DNA of 64,000 nt from NCBI GenBank assembly GCA_017556745.1, contig JAFYMF010000044.1, forward strand, positions 3,784 to 67,783, in the 5' to 3' direction. This DNA is from Clostridia bacterium. Lineage in GTDB: Bacteria > Bacillota > Clostridia > Oscillospirales > CAG-272. Below are positions 27,369 to 35,892 of this stretch, one piece after another (position 1 is the first letter of the stretch; each line of letters opens with the position of its first letter). A program made the translations under genes and the position numbers. The notes beneath the pieces are model-generated. The model did no database searches, had not been told where the DNA came from, and saw only the letters and a list, made by a program, of their open reading frames with translations.

Positions 27369-27593
27369 TATAAAAAGACACCCGACCGGGTGTCTTTTTA
27401 TATTGGCTGGGATAGCCGGATTTGCGAACCGTGATTTTCGTTTTTTGTTTGCTTTTTTCTTCAGTTTCTGCTACGAAAATCTTACTCTGTGCTAACGCAC
27501 AGTGGCGATCCTGCATACTATAGACTATTCTAAACAATATAAAAAGACACCCGACCGGGTGTCTTTTTATATTGGCTGGGATAGCCGGATTTG
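27367..27593 (-). repeat. 58-bp direct repeat (tRNA-Gln 3' end + terminator), period 169 bp
   Basis: 27367-27424 identical to 27536-27593. Confidence 0.92.
27536..27573 (-). terminator. tRNA-Gln terminator (second copy at 27367-27404)
   Basis: AATATAAAAAGACACCCG-AC-CGGGTGTCTTTTTATATT hairpin. Confidence 0.85.
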
Positions 27594-27647
27594 AACCGAC
27601 GAATGCGAGAGTCAAAGTCTCGTGCCTTACCGCTTGGCGATATCCCA
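27573..27647 (-). tRNA. tRNA-Gln(TTG)
   Basis: TGGGATATCGCCAAGCGGTAAGGCACGAGACTTTGACTCTCGCATTCGTCGGTTCAAATCCGGCTATCCCAGCCA; full cloverleaf, encoded CCA. Confidence 0.97.
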
Positions 27648-27658
27648 TCGACCTATAT

Positions 27659-27687
27659 ATTTTATCACAATTACCGCAACATGTCAA
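27659..27687 (-). promoter_or_regulatory. sigmaA promoter for tRNA-Gln
   Basis: TTGACA-17-TAAAAT on the minus strand. Confidence 0.85.
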
Positions 27688-27722
27688 GAAAAAGAGTGTC
27701 GATAGCTTTTTTAATTTACTAC

Positions 27723-27751
27723 TTGAAAACAAGTTCTAAATGTGATATAAT
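27723..27751 (+). promoter_or_regulatory. sigmaA promoter for the repeat array and tRNA-Ser
   Basis: TTGAAA-17-TATAAT, 20 bp upstream of the first tRNA-like unit. Confidence 0.85.
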
Positions 27752-27771
27752 ACTTGAGTGCAAAGTAGCAC

Positions 27772-27995
27772 GCAGAGATATCGAAGCGGTCATAACATGA
27801 ATTGCCATTGACAATTCCGATGACTCGAAATCATCGTGCCGTCAGGCGCGACGGAGCTATGTCTGTGCACAAAAACTTAATACGCAGAGATATCGAAGTG
27901 GTCATAACATGAATTGCCATTGGCAATTCCGATGACTCGAAATCATCGTGCCGTCAGGCGCGACGGAGCTATGTCTGTGCACAAAAACTTAATAC
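27772..27995 (+). repeat. Two tandem 112-bp tRNA-Ser-like units
   Basis: Units start at 27772 and 27884 and differ at 2 positions; the first 25 nt match the tRNA-Ser 5' end (one mismatch in unit 1); each has a CTCGAAA loop. Confidence 0.95.
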
Positions 27996-28084
27996 GCAGA
28001 GATATCGAAGTGGTCATAACGGGGCTGACTCGAAATCAGTTTGCTGGCAACAGCACGAGGGTTCGAATCCCTCTCTCTGCGCCA
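27996..28084 (+). tRNA. tRNA-Ser(CGA)
   Basis: GCAGAGA/TCTCTGC acceptor, GCTGA-CTCGAAA-TCAGT anticodon arm, long variable arm, GAGGG-TTCGAAT-CCCTC, GCCA end. Confidence 0.96.
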
Positions 28085-28085
28085 G

Positions 28086-28121
28086 AAAGAGCCTAAAATG
28101 TTAAGTTTTAGGCTCTTTTTT
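28086..28121 (+). terminator. tRNA-Ser terminator
   Basis: AAAGAGCCTAAAA...TTTTAGGCTCTTT followed by a T run. Confidence 0.85.
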
Positions 28122-28174
28122 CGTTCTGGCACGAAAAAATGTGAAATTTGGAATTATGATTCCAACCAATCGTG

Positions 28175-29020
28175 TTAATCCTCTATTTTCTTGAACGCTT
28201 CGTAATTTGCTACTTCGCGTTCCATATGGTACACCGCATACTCAATCGTGTCGAAGTGGTATAGGTAGTCTTGCATCACGGTGTTGAATACCTTGGCAAC
28301 GATTGCTGGAGGATTTCTGAATGCCCCACAGCCGAACGCACCGAGGATCAGCACCTCATTTCCGTTGGCAGCTGATACCTCAAAGATTCTGCGGATTCGC
28401 TTTGTCAGCAGTTTTTCGAGATCTGCAGGCGTTATCTTTGCAGCCTTGTCTCCGGCGTGAGGATTCATAGAGTTGCTCGGACGTTCACGCAGATTCGGGG
28501 CCGCGCAGGTTAGAATATTCACGTTCCACCAATCCTCTTTGAGCAAGGGTTCGGGAAAGTTCGTGTCACTCTTGAACACGCACACATCCGGAGTATAAAT
28601 GCAGTCGTTGTTGTATAACGGATTGGCTGCTTTGCGATGCGATTTATAGAAAGCACTCCACATCGCATCGGTGTTCAGACACGGGTACAGCATCGTGCAT
28701 CGGCAAAGGCATTCCTCTTGTGCGGAAGAGCCGTTCACCACACCGCCGCCGGGATTGGTTGCCGAAGCAAAGTTCAGTACGCAGACCTTCTTGCCCTGCT
28801 TGGCATAGCTCTCGGCGGCTTCGAGAGAACGTTTGCCGCTGACTATAACTTTCGCTTTTTCGGATTTGTAAGCTTAAGGAATGATAATGTTATCGGTTTC
28901 GGCTATGAATGCTTGTGCTTGGATTTAATGTTGGACGGTGGTCATCAGAGCTGAGTCCGATGTATATTGCCATTCGGTATCGCGGAATATCTCCGCGTTT
29001 TTTGTTCTTCTGTCAGTCAT
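28175..29020 (-). pseudogene. TIGR02452/DUF2263 bacterial PARG-like macrodomain pseudogene
   Basis: One frame from MTDRRTKN with two in-frame TAA stops, then VLNFASATNPGGGVVNGSSAQEE and LILGAFGCGAFRNPP. Confidence 0.85.
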
Positions 29021-29083
29021 GTGATCACATCCTTTCTTTGTGGTAGCACACAAGATACCACAGAAATCCGGGAAAGTATAGAG

Positions 29084-29415
29084 TTATTTTACCTTTTTCT
29101 TGCGTGATTTTATTGCCTCATAGCTCGCATATACCAAACGTTCGAGCTGATCATCGGCAGCATCAGGCAGGCGCACCGAAATCCAATGGTACGTATTCAT
29201 GTGGTATGCTGGATATACACCGTACGTAGCATTGAATGAGCCGAACATTTCGAGCGGCAGCTTGAGATTGACTCTGTCGATCACCACCTTGTCGCTGTCT
29301 GCCGAACTTCCGGTGGGATACGCGCATCACGATGACGTACCATTTGCGATTGTTGCATGACGAAACACCGCCGTTTCGAAGTATTCCTCGAAGGGATAAT
29401 CGGCGGCAGTACCCT
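29084..29415 (-). pseudogene. MmcQ/YjbR-family DNA-binding protein remnant
   Basis: YPF..FETAVFRH / NRKWYVIVM / VNLKL..YPAYHMN..HWISV spread over three frames. Confidence 0.75.
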
Positions 29416-29892
29416 GATGTATGAACGTAATTGTTGCGCCAACGGGAATCTTGCACTTGGAGAAGGCAAACGGAGAAAGACGCTCGATGTGGTCTTTCTC
29501 AATCTCCTGCGCCAAATTTTCGCTCTTTTTCTCTTCAGCAGAGGGATCATACAGATGAAGCCTGTCTTTGCGGCCGCCGAGCACGGCAATTGTCTCAAGG
29601 ATAGAATAAGCCTGTTCGGGTGTCATCGCATAGAATTCACGAACGCGCTGTTTACCGTCCACATTGTCGATAGATCGCAGATTTGGATTGAGCTGGTCAA
29701 TCAGTGCATGGAGTTTCAAGTCCGTAAGGCGTTCCTCAACCTCGTATGTAGCGTAAATGCGGAAGGCAAAAGGAATACACTCACTGTTATTCAGTTGTTT
29801 CAACCGCGATTCCACGTTGTCAGCGTAGCCGATCTTGACATATTGTGGGAGGAGGGATTTGTAAGAATATAAATTACGCCAGCTTTATTCAT
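29416..29892 (-). pseudogene. GIY-YIG (T5orf172-like) nuclease remnant
   Basis: MNKAGVIYILTNPS, frameshift, then QYVKIGYADNVESRLKQLN..PFAF..REFY; C-terminus truncated. Confidence 0.8.
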
Positions 29893-29908
29893 AGAAACTC
29901 CTACTGTA

Positions 29909-30485
29909 TCAAGAATGTGGAATATTGTCTTTCGCTCTTGCCTCATAATATTCATTTGTCAATTCAGATCGCAAGAACGAGCCGTTCAAGAGCTTTATAA
30001 ACGCTTCTTTAGATTTTTTTGTATCCAATCGTATTGCAAGACCATCGTCACTATATTTGAAAGCGCCTTTAAGACCAGGATTTGTTTTTGTAAATTCCAC
30101 TATAACTTCTTTGGGAATATTATTTGCAAAAATAGGTGATGTCTTTTTCACTTTGGAGAGTTTTCTTGCAAAAGATACCTCTTCGGCACTATCTTTTAAT
30201 ACTTGAATATCTTCCAAAGGTTCGAGACTGTCTATTGATTCAATTGTGGTTGATGCCTCTCGAAATATCAGTTCATTAAAACCAAGATTTCGTTCCAGCG
30301 CCTTGACATCGGTAACAAATATCTCATCGCCAACACGGATGAGCTGAAAATCTCCGTTCAAGCGAAGGATATCATCGCTACTAATTTTTTCGAATCGTTC
30401 AGCACTCTTTTTGAGTCCTATGCAGACCAAGCAATAAATAAGAAACAAGAGATGCGCTTAATTGAATATACCGGAAATATTATCG
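29909..30485 (-). pseudogene. Kiwa KwaB (DUF4868)-like C-terminal fragment
   Basis: FEKI..DILRLNGDFQ, LERNLGF, FARKLSKV, FIKLLN.SFLRSELT..YY..AKD; no N-terminus, no kwaA. Confidence 0.65.
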
Positions 30486-30524
30486 CTGCCAATACCTCTT
30501 ACGATCAACAGATAACTTGAATGA

Positions 30525-31676
30525 TCACAGATTATTTATCCACTGAAAATTCTTTTCGTCCCGAACCCGTGTATTTCTCGGGCAGGTTTCAAGAATACGA
30601 ACTGCTTCTGTGAACTGCTTATTATCGCGAATCAGATCGTATATCGACTGTTTCATCTGATACAGGTAATCTTCCGGTGAGCCACACGCCCCCTGTCTGC
30701 CCATTTTCGATTCATCGTAAACCAAATGACTGACAAGATATGATGTATGTTCGGCATAGGGCGGGATTGATTCGTGCATTGCCGAAAATTCGGCGGTTTT
30801 CAGCCAGCATTTAGCCGATTTTTCGCCGTCGCCTTTCATCATGTATGTTTCCGCCATACGGGAGTACGATGCAGCCATATGCCATGCATAATCGAGATAA
30901 TCTCCATCCCGGAACAGACAGTTATAGATTGCAATCTGCATCTCATTCACGGCGATCCATGTGTCGTCATCACACTGCGGCATGCCTTTCGAATCTTCGA
31001 ACCATCTGCCGCACAGGTCAAGCACCTTTCTGTTGAACCACCAGAGCAGTTCCTGCATATTTTTCTGACGAAGTTCGATTCCTTTATCTGTGTCCGCAGG
31101 ATAGATGTCTTCCATCCACAGTTCCTGAGTGAAATTGAATCCGGATGGGATTTTCTTACGCATTTCTTCTCTCTCCTCAGGCTCGCAGACACAGCACAGG
31201 CTCTCGATAGCTCCATAACGATAGTCTTCCACTGTGCATCCTTCAAGAACCAGCTCAGCTACACGGCGGATTTCCGGCTTGCGCTCCTGCCAGTTCTCGT
31301 ACGTCACATCATACGACTGAAGTGCGGTTGTATAGAAATCCATCATTTTATAGGAATACGGATATCTTTTATAACCTTCTACCGCCATGGTAAGGGCTTT
31401 TGCTTCGTCTCCGAGACGTGCGGTCTCGCGGCAGTCAGCAATTAATTGGTCAATCATTGCATCGGTTTGGGTTTTATCATTCCCCAGAAGCTCATCTATG
31501 GTAACACCGAAATAATTCGCTATCACAGGTAAAGTATCAATATCGGGATAGGTTTCCGCGCGTTCCCATTTGGAAACGGTCTGCGGAGTAACACCCACGA
31601 ATTCTGCCAGTTTTTCCTGTGTGATGTCAGCGGTGCGGCGGAGCTTCTTGATATTTTCGCTGAAGTATTTTTTCAT
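30525..31676 (-). CDS. XRE-family HTH regulator with helical (TPR-like) C-terminus
   Basis: IKKLRR..ITQEKLAEFVGVTPQTVSKWE..YPDI..FGVTIDELLG. Confidence 0.85.
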   Translation of the reverse strand: MKKYFSENIKKLRRTADITQEKLAEFVGVTPQTVSKWERAETYPDIDTLPVIANYFGVTIDELLGNDKTQTDAMIDQLIADCRETARLGDEAKALTMAVEGYKRYPYSYKMMDFYTTALQSYDVTYENWQERKPEIRRVAELVLEGCTVEDYRYGAIESLCCVCEPEEREEMRKKIPSGFNFTQELWMEDIYPADTDKGIELRQKNMQELLWWFNRKVLDLCGRWFEDSKGMPQCDDDTWIAVNEMQIAIYNCLFRDGDYLDYAWHMAASYSRMAETYMMKGDGEKSAKCWLKTAEFSAMHESIPPYAEHTSYLVSHLVYDESKMGRQGACGSPEDYLYQMKQSIYDLIRDNKQFTEAVRILETCPRNTRVRDEKNFQWINNL

Positions 31677-31939
31677 TTTTTATCTCCGTGATATTTATTA
31701 CGGTACCGTTGTATTAAGTGTACATCATGATAAAGTGAAAATCAATAACGCGTTTGGCGGGGATTTTTCCCGTTCTTCGTTAGTTTTATAAGACTGTATG
31801 ATAATTGCATCATATCTCGTTTGCCATTCCGGGTACGAAGATAACACCCCACTGCCAATAACGGCGGTGAGGTGTTTGGATTTCCTATTCAGTTTCTGCT
31901 TTCCTGCATATTCTCACAAAACCCCCTCATCCCAGCGGC

Positions 31940-32488
31940 TTACAGTTTTTTCATCATCCAATCCGCGTCCGCATACGTACCGTCCGAATATCTCACATTG
32001 TCCGGAAAGGTACCGTATTTTTCAAACCCCAGACTTCTGTACAATGCGATCGCCCTTTTGTTATCCGAAATCACTTCCAGTTCCGCCTGTTCATATCCGG
32101 CTTCCTTCGCCGCTTCAAGAACTGCCTGCATCATTTTCCTGCCGATTCCGCAGCCGCAGTATTCCTGATACAGTGCAATGGCGATCCCGCAGCGATGGGC
32201 ATATCTTCTGTACGGTGCAATGCTCATCAGCGAACAGTTTCCGATGTGTTTCCCGTCAATGAAAGCGACAAGCATCAGTTCCCGTTCGTCCTCCGCTTTG
32301 CGTTCGATAAACGCTTTTTCCTGTTCGGGAGTTATGGTAATTTCGTCCGGTTCCCGGATCAGATACGGGGTTTCCGCCGATGTTATTCTGAGATATTCGA
32401 TCAAAGCGTCCGCATCCTCCGTTTCTGCTTTCCGCAGGAGAACTTCCCGCCCGAACTTATCTCTGAACTGTACCGATTCAAAATTCAT
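31940..32488 (-). CDS. GNAT acetyltransferase
   Basis: GIAIALYQEYCGCGIG, LEVISDNKRAIALYRSLGF. Confidence 0.9.
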   Translation of the reverse strand: MNFESVQFRDKFGREVLLRKAETEDADALIEYLRITSAETPYLIREPDEITITPEQEKAFIERKAEDERELMLVAFIDGKHIGNCSLMSIAPYRRYAHRCGIAIALYQEYCGCGIGRKMMQAVLEAAKEAGYEQAELEVISDNKRAIALYRSLGFEKYGTFPDNVRYSDGTYADADWMMKKL

Positions 32489-32744
32489 ATCTTGCTTTTT
32501 CCTTTCGTTTCAACCCAAAGTTCATTACAAATGTCCCGATCAGTGCCAGCGGAAGTGCGATGAACCTGTTGCGATAAACACGCTGACGGCATCGTATTTG
32601 GTGTCTCCTCCTGCCGGATGACTGATTTGTCGAAGTTTTGAACTATTATATACCAATCGCTGAAGAATGTCAATCATTGAAAACAGCCGGAGCAATTCCG
32701 TAATTCTGCAAGGTATATCTGTCAATTTAGGATGAATTACGGAT

Positions 32745-32766
32745 TTTATCAGTTATAACTGATAAA
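32745..32766. promoter_or_regulatory. 22-bp perfect palindrome, putative operator
   Basis: TTTATCAGTTATAACTGATAAA; partial repeat CAGTTATAA at 32790-32798; upstream of the AAA ATPase. Confidence 0.6.
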
Positions 32767-32844
32767 TTTACAATTCGATCATTGTATTTCAGTTATAAAT
32801 GGATTATACTATACTCAGCCACGAGAAAGGGGGACTAAAAAATT

Positions 32845-34059
32845 ATGATTAAACGCGAAATGTATATGAGCCGTATTCGTCCTTTCATCGGATCGGATCT
32901 TATAAAGGTCATGACCGGTATTCGCCGCTGCGGAAAGTCAGTTATGCTGGAACTGATCAAGCAGGAACTTACGGAATCCGGCATCAGCCCCGCTCAGTTT
33001 ATCTCCATCAATTTTGAGGATATGAACTATTCCCATCTGCAAACCGCTAAGGCACTGCATGATGAGATCACGAAGAGAGCTGCCGGCATAGAAGGCAAGG
33101 TATATCTGTTCTTCGATGAGATTCAGGAGGTCAGGGATTGGGAGAAATGTGTCAACTCCTTCCGTATTTCGCTGGACTGTGACATTTATATCACCGGTTC
33201 AAATGCCAAGCTGCTGTCCGGGGAGCTTGCAACCTATCTGGGGGGACGCTATGTCGAGTTTGTGATATACCCCTTTTCCTTTGCGGAGTTTATGAAGCTG
33301 TATCGCGGGGTTGCACCGGACGAGCCGGTTCAGAAATGTTTTCAGCAATACCTTTTATCCGGCGGTATGCCTTACCTTGCGAACATCCGATATGCAGATG
33401 CTCCGGCAAAGCAATACCTCCATGATCTCTTCAATTCCGTTCAGCTGAAGGATATTATGAAGCGAAACAAAATCAGAGATGTAGATTTGCTTGAGCGTAT
33501 AATCGCCTATGTTATGGCAAATGTGGGCAATACCTTCTCCGCAACCTCTCTTGCAAAGTTTCTGAAAAGTGAACAGCGTGCCGTAGCACCGGAGACTATC
33601 CTGAACTACATCAAATATTGCTGTGATGCCTATCTGTTCTATCAGGTGAAGCGTGAGGATTTGCAGGGCAAACAGATTCTTGCATCGAATGAGAAATATT
33701 ACATTGCGGATCACGGCATCCGGGAAGCTGTTTACGGAGGCAACACACGAGACATCAACCTTATTCTTGAGAATATCGTTTATCTGGAACTGATGCGCAG
33801 AGGTTATAAGGTTACTGTTGGCAAAACCGGAGACCTTGAGATTGACTTCGTATGCGAGAATCGGGGAGAGAAGCTGTATGTTCAGGTTGCTTATCTGCTG
33901 GCAGCGGAAGAAACAATTGCCCGTGAGTTTGGAGCGTATGACAGCATCCAGGATAACTTCCCCAAGTATGTCGTTTCTCTGGATGAGTTTGATATGAGCC
34001 GCAACGGCATCAAGCACCGGAACCTCCGTGATTTCCTCCTGATGGAGGAGTGGAACTGA
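32845..34059 (+). CDS. AAA_14 ATPase with DUF4143 domain
   Basis: TGIRRCGKS, INFED, FFDEIQ, ITGSNA, YIADHG, LENIVYLEL, EIDFV, YVQV. Confidence 0.9.
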   Translation: MIKREMYMSRIRPFIGSDLIKVMTGIRRCGKSVMLELIKQELTESGISPAQFISINFEDMNYSHLQTAKALHDEITKRAAGIEGKVYLFFDEIQEVRDWEKCVNSFRISLDCDIYITGSNAKLLSGELATYLGGRYVEFVIYPFSFAEFMKLYRGVAPDEPVQKCFQQYLLSGGMPYLANIRYADAPAKQYLHDLFNSVQLKDIMKRNKIRDVDLLERIIAYVMANVGNTFSATSLAKFLKSEQRAVAPETILNYIKYCCDAYLFYQVKREDLQGKQILASNEKYYIADHGIREAVYGGNTRDINLILENIVYLELMRRGYKVTVGKTGDLEIDFVCENRGEKLYVQVAYLLAAEETIAREFGAYDSIQDNFPKYVVSLDEFDMSRNGIKHRNLRDFLLMEEWN

Positions 34060-34330
34060 AGATATTCCAATAATGACATTCTAATAGAAGCAAAAGAAAT
34101 TTTAGACGCATTCAACACTCTAAAGCAAAACTGTTAATTTTCAGGAACAACAGGTTACAATCATGTGAACTGAAAAAGCGGATAGAGTAAAAACGCTGCA
34201 TTACGCACAACCCCTCCATCCCGCAGTTTTCCCGCAAATTCTCACAAACTGCGTACAATCCCGCAAAAATCCCCGAAAATCCGCGTTTTTCAGGGACGAT
34301 GCGGGACGAAACGGGACACCATGCCATTTG

Positions 34331-34386
34331 CTCGAAATGTCGTGTACAGAAATGCACCTAGGGTTCGAATCCCTCTCTCTGCGCCA
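34331..34386 (+). pseudogene. Orphan tRNA-Ser 3' half (att-like)
   Basis: CTCGAAA loop + variable-arm remnant + T arm + acceptor 3' strand + CCA; followed by AGACCGCAATT/AATTGCGGTCT hairpin. Confidence 0.85.
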
Positions 34387-35530: not shown

Positions 35531-35711
35531 TTATCTCAATGCTTTACTCATCGCGGCGCCGGTGTCTGCTTTGCTGACGGCATCGAGGTGGCTATAGATG
35601 TTGGCGGTGGTGCTCATATCGCTATGCCCGAGCCATTCCTGAATCTGCTTCATGGATACGCCCTTCTCCAGCAACGCCGAGGCACAGGAGCGACGTAGGT
35701 CGTGGGAACCT
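35531..35711 (-). pseudogene. Tyrosine integrase C-terminal fragment 1
   Basis: HDLRRSCAS.LL..GVSMKQIQEWLGHSD.STTANIYSH. Confidence 0.9.
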
Positions 35712-35892
35712 GTCTTTTTCAAATTATGCTTTTCAATTTGTTATTTCACTCATCAATAACATCCCCTGCTTTTAACAAGAGTCAAAATCAACCACAAGTT
35801 GTGCGAATTTTATTTCTGTTATCCAAACGCTATCTTTATAGTCGTTTTTTGATATGATATACTATACACAAGATGAAGAGGAGGTTGAATCT

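Follow-up and report, generated by a model that had tools for sequence, protein, structure and literature searches.

Why should a tRNA gene be preceded by pieces of itself? The question is raised by a 64,000-nt stretch of a Clostridia bacterium genome (contig JAFYMF010000044.1; this whole stretch is called the window below), in which the serine tRNA gene tRNA-Ser(CGA) stands in phase with two 112-bp units located directly upstream, all of them behind one strong promoter. The original prediction, made from the letters of the window, took the units either for a co-transcribed tRNA mimic or decoy RNA, or for a tiny element which inserts after the D-loop and regenerates the 5' end of the tRNA gene. 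Our analysis leaves the mimic reading weak and the element reading broadly right, provided that the junction is moved to the anticodon loop. Most likely, the units are neither tRNA genes nor dedicated mimics. We put at slightly below 60% the probability that they go back to elements which rebuild the 5' half of tRNA-Ser, being either footprints of such elements or miniature derivatives without an integrase, and that they were doubled by unequal crossover and are passively transcribed as a leader. The 112-bp pair is probably one short member of a large population present across genomes of gut Lachnospiraceae, the family referred to below.

The layout of the array (coordinates are collected in Table 1) is as originally described. 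Tandem Repeats Finder reports a single array at 27770-28020 with a period of 112, 2.2 copies, 98% matches, no indels and a score of 488, and ARAGORN finds two genes in the 64-kb window, tRNA-Gln and tRNA-Ser(CGA); together with the sequence itself, both programs agree on two 112-bp units in exact phase with the tRNA. The repeat starts at 27772 and 27884 are called tRNA by neither ARAGORN nor the Rfam tRNA model (E up to 10). The sigmaA-type promoter expected 20 bp before unit 1 was also located at that distance by the promoter scan, which returned no promoter-like site on the plus strand between 27752 and tRNA-Ser. Promoters within the units were considered as well, and the scan gave none. As the only promoter is upstream, the units are expected to be transcribed as a long pre-tRNA leader.

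Each unit opens with the first 25 bases of tRNA-Ser and continues with a palindrome, an anticodon-like arm CGATGA-CTCGAAA-TCATCG and a hairpin CCGTC-AGGCGC-GACGG; it also holds TATGTCTGT, while a T arm and CCA are missing. Each unit has 87 non-tRNA nucleotides and contains no open reading frame. The two units differ at two positions, 27787/27899 (C/T) and 27811/27923 (A/G). The first is base 16, where unit 2 shares its T with the tRNA. The second lies in the palindrome, which in unit 1 (GACAATTC) is spoiled by the A at 27811; contigs of two other studies have G there. All the parts named in the original prediction are thus present, except that the palindrome of unit 1 is imperfect.

Alignment of both units with the tRNA and with a homologue from a genome of the same genus (G001) divides the unit into tRNA bases 1-25, a 19-nt palindrome insertion, 13 nt identical to the tRNA and 52 diverged nt. 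The 13 identical nucleotides, TGACTCGAAATCA, are the anticodon loop with three stem bases on either side, and the last 17 of the 52 diverged ones duplicate the tRNA's own leader. Identity is 100% from -17 to +25 and over the 13 nt around the anticodon loop, and near random elsewhere. The units have the form of tRNA end fragments: they start at base 1 plus 17 nt of leader, have the same orientation as the gene and lie directly upstream of it. If the palindrome is counted as an insertion, the likeness stops just past the anticodon loop. An insertion after the D-loop is not the preferred reading of this picture, since the likeness resumes past the palindrome and since 70 of 79 units in related genomes, described below, break at the anticodon loop too. 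Without the insertion assumption, the break falls at tRNA base 25, as in seven of those 79 units; we know of no integrase crossover subsite at base 25 or at bases 27-28.

The array is genuine and is not an assembly artefact: three gut metagenome studies, independent of each other, yielded contigs over unit 1 or the unit-to-unit junction, although these cannot give the exact copy number. Both unit variants (C/A and T/G) are present among contigs of run X1. A 284-nt Logan contig of another study (X3; 27618-27901, two differences) begins in tRNA-Gln, continues over the promoter and unit 1 and ends in the next head, where head stands for the partial tRNA-Ser 5' copy that begins a unit; a 142-nt Logan contig of a third study (X7) spans the junction between the units (27788-27929, three differences). 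Tandem repeats are error-prone in short-read assemblies of metagenome-assembled genomes (MAGs), and the G001 copy lies at a contig end, but with the contigs of three studies and both variants in X1 the chance of an assembly or collapse artefact is practically nil. In a metatranscriptome (X15), three contigs lie over the unit-to-unit junction, which is compatible with transcription, though library DNA is possible; where the window lacks RNA contigs in X15, no conclusion is drawn from this.

In its source genome the unit occurs at this locus only. Among 101 genomes (the source genome G000 and 100 relatives), the search that had been proposed found it elsewhere only in G001, plus three weak matches in G058, G085 and G038 (E 0.001-0.006), and a scan of one genome per species again gave the G001 record as the sole match. 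The G001 copy has a promoter of its own, and its head contains a palindrome with the same stem and a different loop. This palindrome-bearing head is joined at the anticodon loop to the start of another unit type, type D, so a head with the anticodon-like arm must itself once have been a recombination target. Homology of the window unit's tail to type D units was suggested by eye and was not significant on scoring. Metagenome contigs gave no match to a strict unit pattern; a loose pattern gave at least 117 chance matches, with a palindrome-bearing head in none of the 80 loci listed.

The unit itself is rare, and the arrangement is widespread. In another genome of the same genus (G003), a promoter is followed by a partial copy of tRNA-Ser(UGA), which ~140 nt of other DNA separate from the true tRNA. 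The D-arm motif of the family's tRNA-Ser is present in 346 of 401 sampled family genomes, and two such motifs 176-206 nt apart on one strand were found in 95 of the 401, in 59 of 97 genera and in 68 of 271 high-quality genomes. The arrays consist of one to four partial tRNA-Ser 5' copies ahead of tRNA-Ser(CGA or UGA); only one full tRNA as the first copy was noticed in the motif-pair listing (G170, same spacing). In 37 non-redundant arrays, the tRNA-Ser called by ARAGORN starts exactly at the last head in 29 and at an upstream head in none; seven of the other eight run beyond the fetched DNA and one is masked by N. At the array locus L026 (G303:C34:29400-30300), part of the sequence is N and the units are unreadable. 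Each scanned array has a single promoter-like site ahead of it.

The enlarged set comprises 73 arrays with 100 units of about 32 sequence types. Unit length is mostly 178-212 nt, with a few units of 78, 236 and 383 nt. Among 79 units compared with the tRNA of their own array, 70 lose their likeness to it at the 3' edge of the anticodon loop (bases 41-44), seven at bases 27-28 and two at bases 48-49. The units have one layout in common: after the head come a variable hairpin, an A-rich short hairpin with TTTTCG behind it, type-specific short direct repeats pairable with a downstream inverted copy, a last hairpin and an ATATAC-like leader end. Direct repeats resembling integrase arm sites occur in most 180-210-nt units of relatives. 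Congeners which share the promoter and the first head differ in their units and in their real tRNAs (L036, L037, L057). Type E tails are followed by the same head variant in five of five arrays, while the head preceding type E units varies. The head thus keeps to its upstream DNA and not to the DNA that follows, which is what an element supplying both leader and head would produce. Unit doubling was also found at L033, L078, L091, L116 and L117 and fits unequal crossover. Of ten array loci tested, four have a tyrosine integrase immediately 3' of the real tRNA-Ser; in the others, this place is taken by genes for restriction-modification or other defence. In G147, two heads 55 kb apart were considered as the ends of a prophage and rejected, as they belong to two separate tRNA genes.

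Elements with a suitable attachment site do exist among phages. Out of 44 viral contigs with head and loop, 35 have the full tRNA, two are cut by the contig end and seven carry a true partial head. Three of these loci (L129, L156, L160) have, after the partial head, first a bidirectional terminator, then a direct-repeat pair and finally a tyrosine integrase of 373-374 aa encoded on the other strand. L129 and L160 come from 150-kb phage genomes that have direct terminal repeats and one head each and whose completeness is estimated at 100%; a single head in a complete phage genome makes this site the phage attachment site (attP). Upstream of the phage head lie its own promoter and the same repeat pair as the other arm, so that the order of the attP is promoter, arm repeats, leader, tRNA-Ser 1-41, anticodon loop, terminator, arm repeats, integrase. 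This is how an element should look that pushes the resident 5' half aside and brings a replacement. At L156, the sole locus examined further, the genes beyond the integrase are of phage type (RNase H, HNH/AP2). Here the segment from the loop to the P' repeats, one repeat pair, the segment from the P repeats to the head and the head itself sum to ~177 nt. The sum is near the usual size of a unit, so an integrated element recombining between its two repeat pairs would be reduced to a unit of this kind. A phage collection gave no match to the window unit and matched other units by their tRNA part only. Matching fecal scaffolds labelled 'Bacteriophage sp.' are unverified records, and one of them (L046) is simply another array.

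We suggest the following history. First, the anticodon loop of the resident gene would have recombined with an element whose attP holds a leader and the 5' part of tRNA-Ser. This would have shifted the gene's own 5' part upstream, still joined to short element DNA, and the working tRNA would since have been completed by the leader and 5' part of the element. Some 50 nt of foreign DNA would be left between the two heads, either as a collapsed larger element or as an integrase-less miniature keeping its att arms. Later, the 19-nt palindrome would have entered the dead head, and an unequal crossover between heads would then have doubled the unit. The result is a short unit, with a foreign part of 52 nt plus the palindrome. 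Transcription would start at 27752 or soon after, pass through both units and end past the tRNA; an RNase P cut at 27996 would free the tRNA, the leader would be discarded, and a longer precursor would be the sole effect of the units on the tRNA. We infer the order of events, the deletion by arm-repeat recombination, the co-transcription and the RNase P processing; the steps of transcription and processing lean on the single promoter and on general knowledge of bacterial tRNA maturation. The proposal of a tiny element that regenerates the 5' end is partly supported by the many units with 5' heads in relatives and the phage attP with a 5' half; the part to be corrected is the insertion after the D-loop.

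A number of observations weigh against this history. The unit is known only from this genome and one congener, so the history rests on two sequences. No arm-type direct repeats, integrase or terminator are visible inside the 112-bp unit. Comparison of its 52-nt tail with other unit types gave no match beyond AAAACTTAATAC, a 12-nt leader motif, whose match score of 24 compares with a null maximum of 19 +/- 2.2 (largest 28). The tail aligns loosely with the 3' side of the tRNA T-loop, the 3' strand of the acceptor and CCA, as a decayed whole-gene duplicate would. The palindrome stem was kept between the source genome and G001 despite the change of loop, which could mean selection on structure. 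On the side of the presumed source elements, the arms of L156 were found in none of the 401 family genomes, which matched the tRNA head only, and no full-size element with the same arms was found for any unit type. Scans of viral contigs gave no match to the window unit pattern and none to the arm motifs of any of three unit types. Two arrays compared with the phage collection gave tRNA-part matches and one weak array-like match only. Because no full-size counterpart of any unit type was found, we infer the step from a large element to a unit of 80-210 bp. Finally, the tight size range of type A and its ~90% identity over eight genera are easier to reconcile with an entity that is under selection or propagates itself than with a neutral scar.

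Three other explanations have to be weighed, and the structure of the unit bears on the one closest to the first candidate of the original prediction: a working, co-transcribed tRNA-Ser look-alike RNA devoid of a T arm, which might serve as a decoy for anticodon nucleases or modification enzymes, as a sponge for seryl-tRNA synthetase or as a regulator of processing of the downstream tRNA. With a strong tRNA promoter ahead and none of its own, the unit should be transcribed if the tRNA is, and X15 has contigs over the unit junction, although these could be DNA. The unit has a minimum free energy of -37.4 kcal/mol (z -3.9), equalled by none of 200 shuffles, shows the exact 7-nt anticodon loop on a 6-bp stem, and kept its palindrome stem in G001, where the loop changed. 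However, the best fold pairs the D-region with the 5' side of the anticodon-like stem, and a cloverleaf-like fold reaches only -29.5 kcal/mol when closed by TCTGTGC, which pairs with GCAGAGA at six of seven positions, or -29.7 kcal/mol when closed by TATGTCTGT, which pairs with GCAGAGATA at eight of nine, i.e., both are ~8 kcal/mol worse. The altered but paired anticodon-like stem had been taken as evidence of retained structure; it is fully paired indeed, but half of its six pairs are simply those of the tRNA, which leaves just three (CGA/TCG) as new and makes the stem weaker evidence than it seemed. A search of 27400-28300 against Rfam 15 (E up to 10) gave no family for the units at the gathering threshold; the sub-threshold matches over the units were CRISPR-DR63 (19.3 bits, threshold 37, E 3.9) and Xoo1 (16.4 bits, threshold 70, E 5.3), nothing above chance, and ARAGORN is silent on the units. 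Eight related arrays (E up to 0.01) gave tRNA and chance-level matches only. Other unit types do keep conserved hairpins with a few compensatory changes (e.g., CTGTC/GACAG to CTGCC/GGCAG), but their consensus folds are no better for the sense strand than for the antisense one and have few covarying pairs, their G-U pairs show no strand bias that would point to an RNA function, and most of them have not kept the anticodon stem. The window unit itself occurs in two species only. Neither Rfam, nor the fold comparison, nor the consensus folds of relatives thus support a mimic or decoy RNA, and we consider it quite improbable. An acceptor-like closure was also considered as a general feature: by eye, it is seen in the unit of G003 and is inconsistent across unit types.

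The units could also be decayed tandem duplicates of the whole tRNA-Ser gene with its 17-nt leader, made without any integrase, in which case the upstream copies would have lost the T arm, gained the palindrome and drifted, their 5' part being kept by gene conversion. The tRNA-like parts stand in the correct order, the first copy in G170 is a full tRNA at the same spacing, and the loose alignment of the tail with the tRNA 3' end (TCTGTGC vs TCTCTGC, and CCA), together with the shortness and lack of repeats of the window unit, makes this a reasonable second rival. But the boundary of identity is sharp and without a gradient, 77 of the 79 units of relatives break at one of two fixed places, and the G001 head joined to type D at the anticodon loop shows recombination at that very point; such an origin is accordingly unlikely. 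The remaining explanation, the main rival, overlaps with the footprint reading and adds ongoing mobility to it: non-autonomous miniature cassettes, with a complete attP and little else, would be moved in trans by neighbouring tyrosine integrases specific for tRNA-Ser, and arrays would grow and shuffle as integrons do. The compactness and cross-genus conservation of unit types would fit such attP-only cassettes equally well. Type A, with a unique part of 158 nt, has matches of any kind in 13 of 401 genomes (eight genera) and whole matches of 130-158 nt in ten genomes at 89-100% identity; it is never split by cargo and is compact in ten out of ten whole matches. Unit sizes cluster at 178-212 nt, near the size of a full attP (~250 bp in the Islander report, PMC4383910; ~177 nt at L156), the arrays of congeners differ at the same locus, and the type-specific short direct repeats look like arm-type sites. 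Against this, no route is known by which a 200-bp circle could pass between cells, recurrent scarring by one phage family would produce the same pattern, and the window unit has no direct repeats, so we regard it as rather unlikely for these units. As a more general proposal, integrase-less attP-only cassettes of ~80-210 bp in gut Lachnospiraceae would insert at the tRNA-Ser anticodon loop, rebuild the 5' half, stack near the promoter, and be mobilised in trans by tRNA-Ser integrases of phages and islands; the 112-bp pair of the window would be one of the shorter cassettes. This we hold as a tentative possibility of rather low probability; the arrays may then document past integrations and also offer spare attachment sites, the anticodon-like arm of a unit having served as a target in G001, and the transcribed units might also act as RNAs.

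How do the footprints that we favour compare with known systems? In the Islander report, 159 islands have a 5' tRNA fragment as opposed to 3760 with a 3' fragment, 2083 sites are anticodon-centred, and the anticodon loop is one recognised crossover subsite of tyrosine integrases (PMC4383910). Fragments of tRNA genes produced by integration are described for Archaea and some Bacteria in PMC9897764. The window units resemble the 5'-fragment islands in having a partial tRNA copy in the same orientation, on the proper side and with a break at the anticodon loop, the gene being restored by the element. They differ from these islands in the 87 nt (window) or ~40-170 nt (relatives) between fragment and gene, with no integrase or cargo, and in the stacking of several units within a transcribed leader. 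Since Islander drops candidates which are shorter than 2 kb or lack an integrase (PMC4383910), such units would go unreported there. Full-text literature searches, which leave out supplementary tables possibly listing 5'-fragment islands of Clostridia, returned no description of stacked short 5' copies of tRNA-Ser; 5'-fragment islands as such are already known, as a rare class in the Islander report.

Stacking as such has precedents in tandem accretion, in which successive integrations leave repeated att sites at one tRNA or gene end, and in the integrase-less cis-mobilisable elements (CIMEs) of Firmicutes. CIMEs keep their att sites, lack a recombinase and can be moved by the integrase of a relative; they are kilobases long and bear genes. 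The units, in contrast, are 78-236 bp long, regenerate the 5' half and lie upstream of the tRNA. As in integron cassette arrays, short promoter-proximal units each end in a recombination site, and their number and order vary among close relatives. The likeness concerns a possible way of working only: the recombination site in the units is the tRNA anticodon loop, unlike in integron cassettes, no integron integrase or attC-type site is evident and the units encode nothing obvious. Known tRNA-like RNAs include the T-arm-less mitochondrial tRNAs of nematodes, mascRNA and viral tRNA-like structures. The units resemble them in a possible acceptor-like closure, in an anticodon-like arm that carries the true loop, in a hairpin reminiscent of a long variable arm and in the order of tRNA parts. 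They differ in that the tRNA-like fold is disfavoured, CCA is absent, tRNA and Rfam models do not detect them, a palindrome separates the D arm from the anticodon arm, and conservation is confined to one genus.

If the footprint reading is true, about a quarter of sampled Lachnospiraceae genomes carry stacked 5'-half footprints between the promoter and the gene of tRNA-Ser. This would account for odd tRNA-Ser pseudo-copies and perhaps for contig breaks at tRNA-Ser genes in gut MAGs, and the arrays could serve as an ordered record of the element families that visited a lineage. The precursor of an essential tRNA would have a leader that can reach 1 kb, which bears on RNase P processing and on possible leader-derived RNAs. 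It also raises the question of whether a bare attP of ~200 bp can be a mobile non-autonomous element.

Table 1. Positions of the array, of the features around it in the window and of the phage attachment sites discussed in the text.
Feature	Position	Strand	Details
tRNA-Gln	27573-27647	-	ARAGORN
Promoter-like site of tRNA-Gln	27687-27659	-	TTGACA-17 nt-TAAAAT; divergent from, and close to, the tRNA-Ser promoter
Sigma-70-type promoter of the array	27723-27751	+	TTGAAA-17 nt-TATAAT, TG ahead of the second hexamer; 11/12 matches
Unit 1	27772-27883	+	starts with tRNA-Ser bases 1-25 (C at base 16)
Unit 1, imperfect palindrome	27799-27817		
Unit 1, anticodon-loop arm	27818-27836		
Unit 1, hairpin	27839-27854		
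Unit 1, 17-nt leader copy	27867-27883		
Unit 2	27884-27995	+	layout as in unit 1; T at base 16
Unit 2, perfect palindrome	27911-27929		
Unit 2, anticodon-loop arm	27930-27948		
Unit 2, hairpin	27951-27966		
Unit 2, leader copy	27979-27995		
tRNA-Ser(CGA), CCA encoded	27996-28084	+	ARAGORN; Rfam tRNA 54 bits, E 1.1e-10
Terminator-like hairpin and T run after tRNA-Ser	28086-28125	+	by eye; unlisted in a simple terminator scan
Decayed classical 3'-restoring island	28085-34330		no intact integrase; Pfam; limits set by the tRNA and the 3' partial copy
Short TCCCGCA-type direct repeats, arm-site-like	34218-34290	+	~90-110 nt left of the right-end crossover of the island; by eye
Displaced 3' partial tRNA-Ser copy (island attR)	34331-34386	+	56 nt, from the anticodon loop (CTCGAAAT) to CCA
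Broken tyrosine-integrase fragment	35582-35794	-	PF00589, 51.6 bits, profile positions 95-169, three internal stops
Phage attP loci	L129 5780-6040; L156 400-690		records G442, G443, G441; 5' 41 nt of tRNA-Ser(CGA)

On its 3' side, the tRNA-Ser of the window borders a gene-poor island of 6.2 kb, for which it is the attL-side tRNA. The island codes for a PARG-domain fragment, a weak MUG113 match, a KwaB-like (Kiwa) protein, a helix-turn-helix protein, a GNAT protein and an AAA_14/DUF4143 ATPase. The displaced copy at its right end is identical to the tRNA 3' end over the last 27 nt. The broken integrase fragment lies 1.2 kb to the right of this copy and is probably a remnant of an older island in tandem. 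The partial copy and the nearby integrase fragment indicate that integrases have already cut this gene at the anticodon loop in the classical, 3'-restoring sense. Between the units and the tRNA there is no integrase or element body, the nearest trace being the same fragment on the opposite side of the tRNA. By eye, the TCCCGCA-type repeats of the island resemble the TCTCGCA-type repeats of type F units from other genera.

A second lineage of tRNA-Ser(CGA) was observed at L134 (12308-12560), where it differs in the D arm (GTCCGAGAGGTCGAAGG) and in the anticodon stem and stands behind a unit with the usual head of the family. The displaced fragment of the window resembles the 3' half of this second lineage. 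Given this likeness and the mixture of heads at L134, working tRNAs look like patchworks of halves from different sources.

Units of a second kind, with a break at base 27-28, occur at the tRNA-Ser(UGA) loci L028, L029, L043, L053, L081 and L087. They begin with a strong terminator-like hairpin, and the repeat can reach ~60 nt upstream of the tRNA. Elsewhere in the source genome, the 19-nt palindrome has one copy with one mismatch (contig C58:26193-26211; L011 1490-1530), located just past a promoter-like site in an apparent structured leader unrelated to the tRNA-Ser array.

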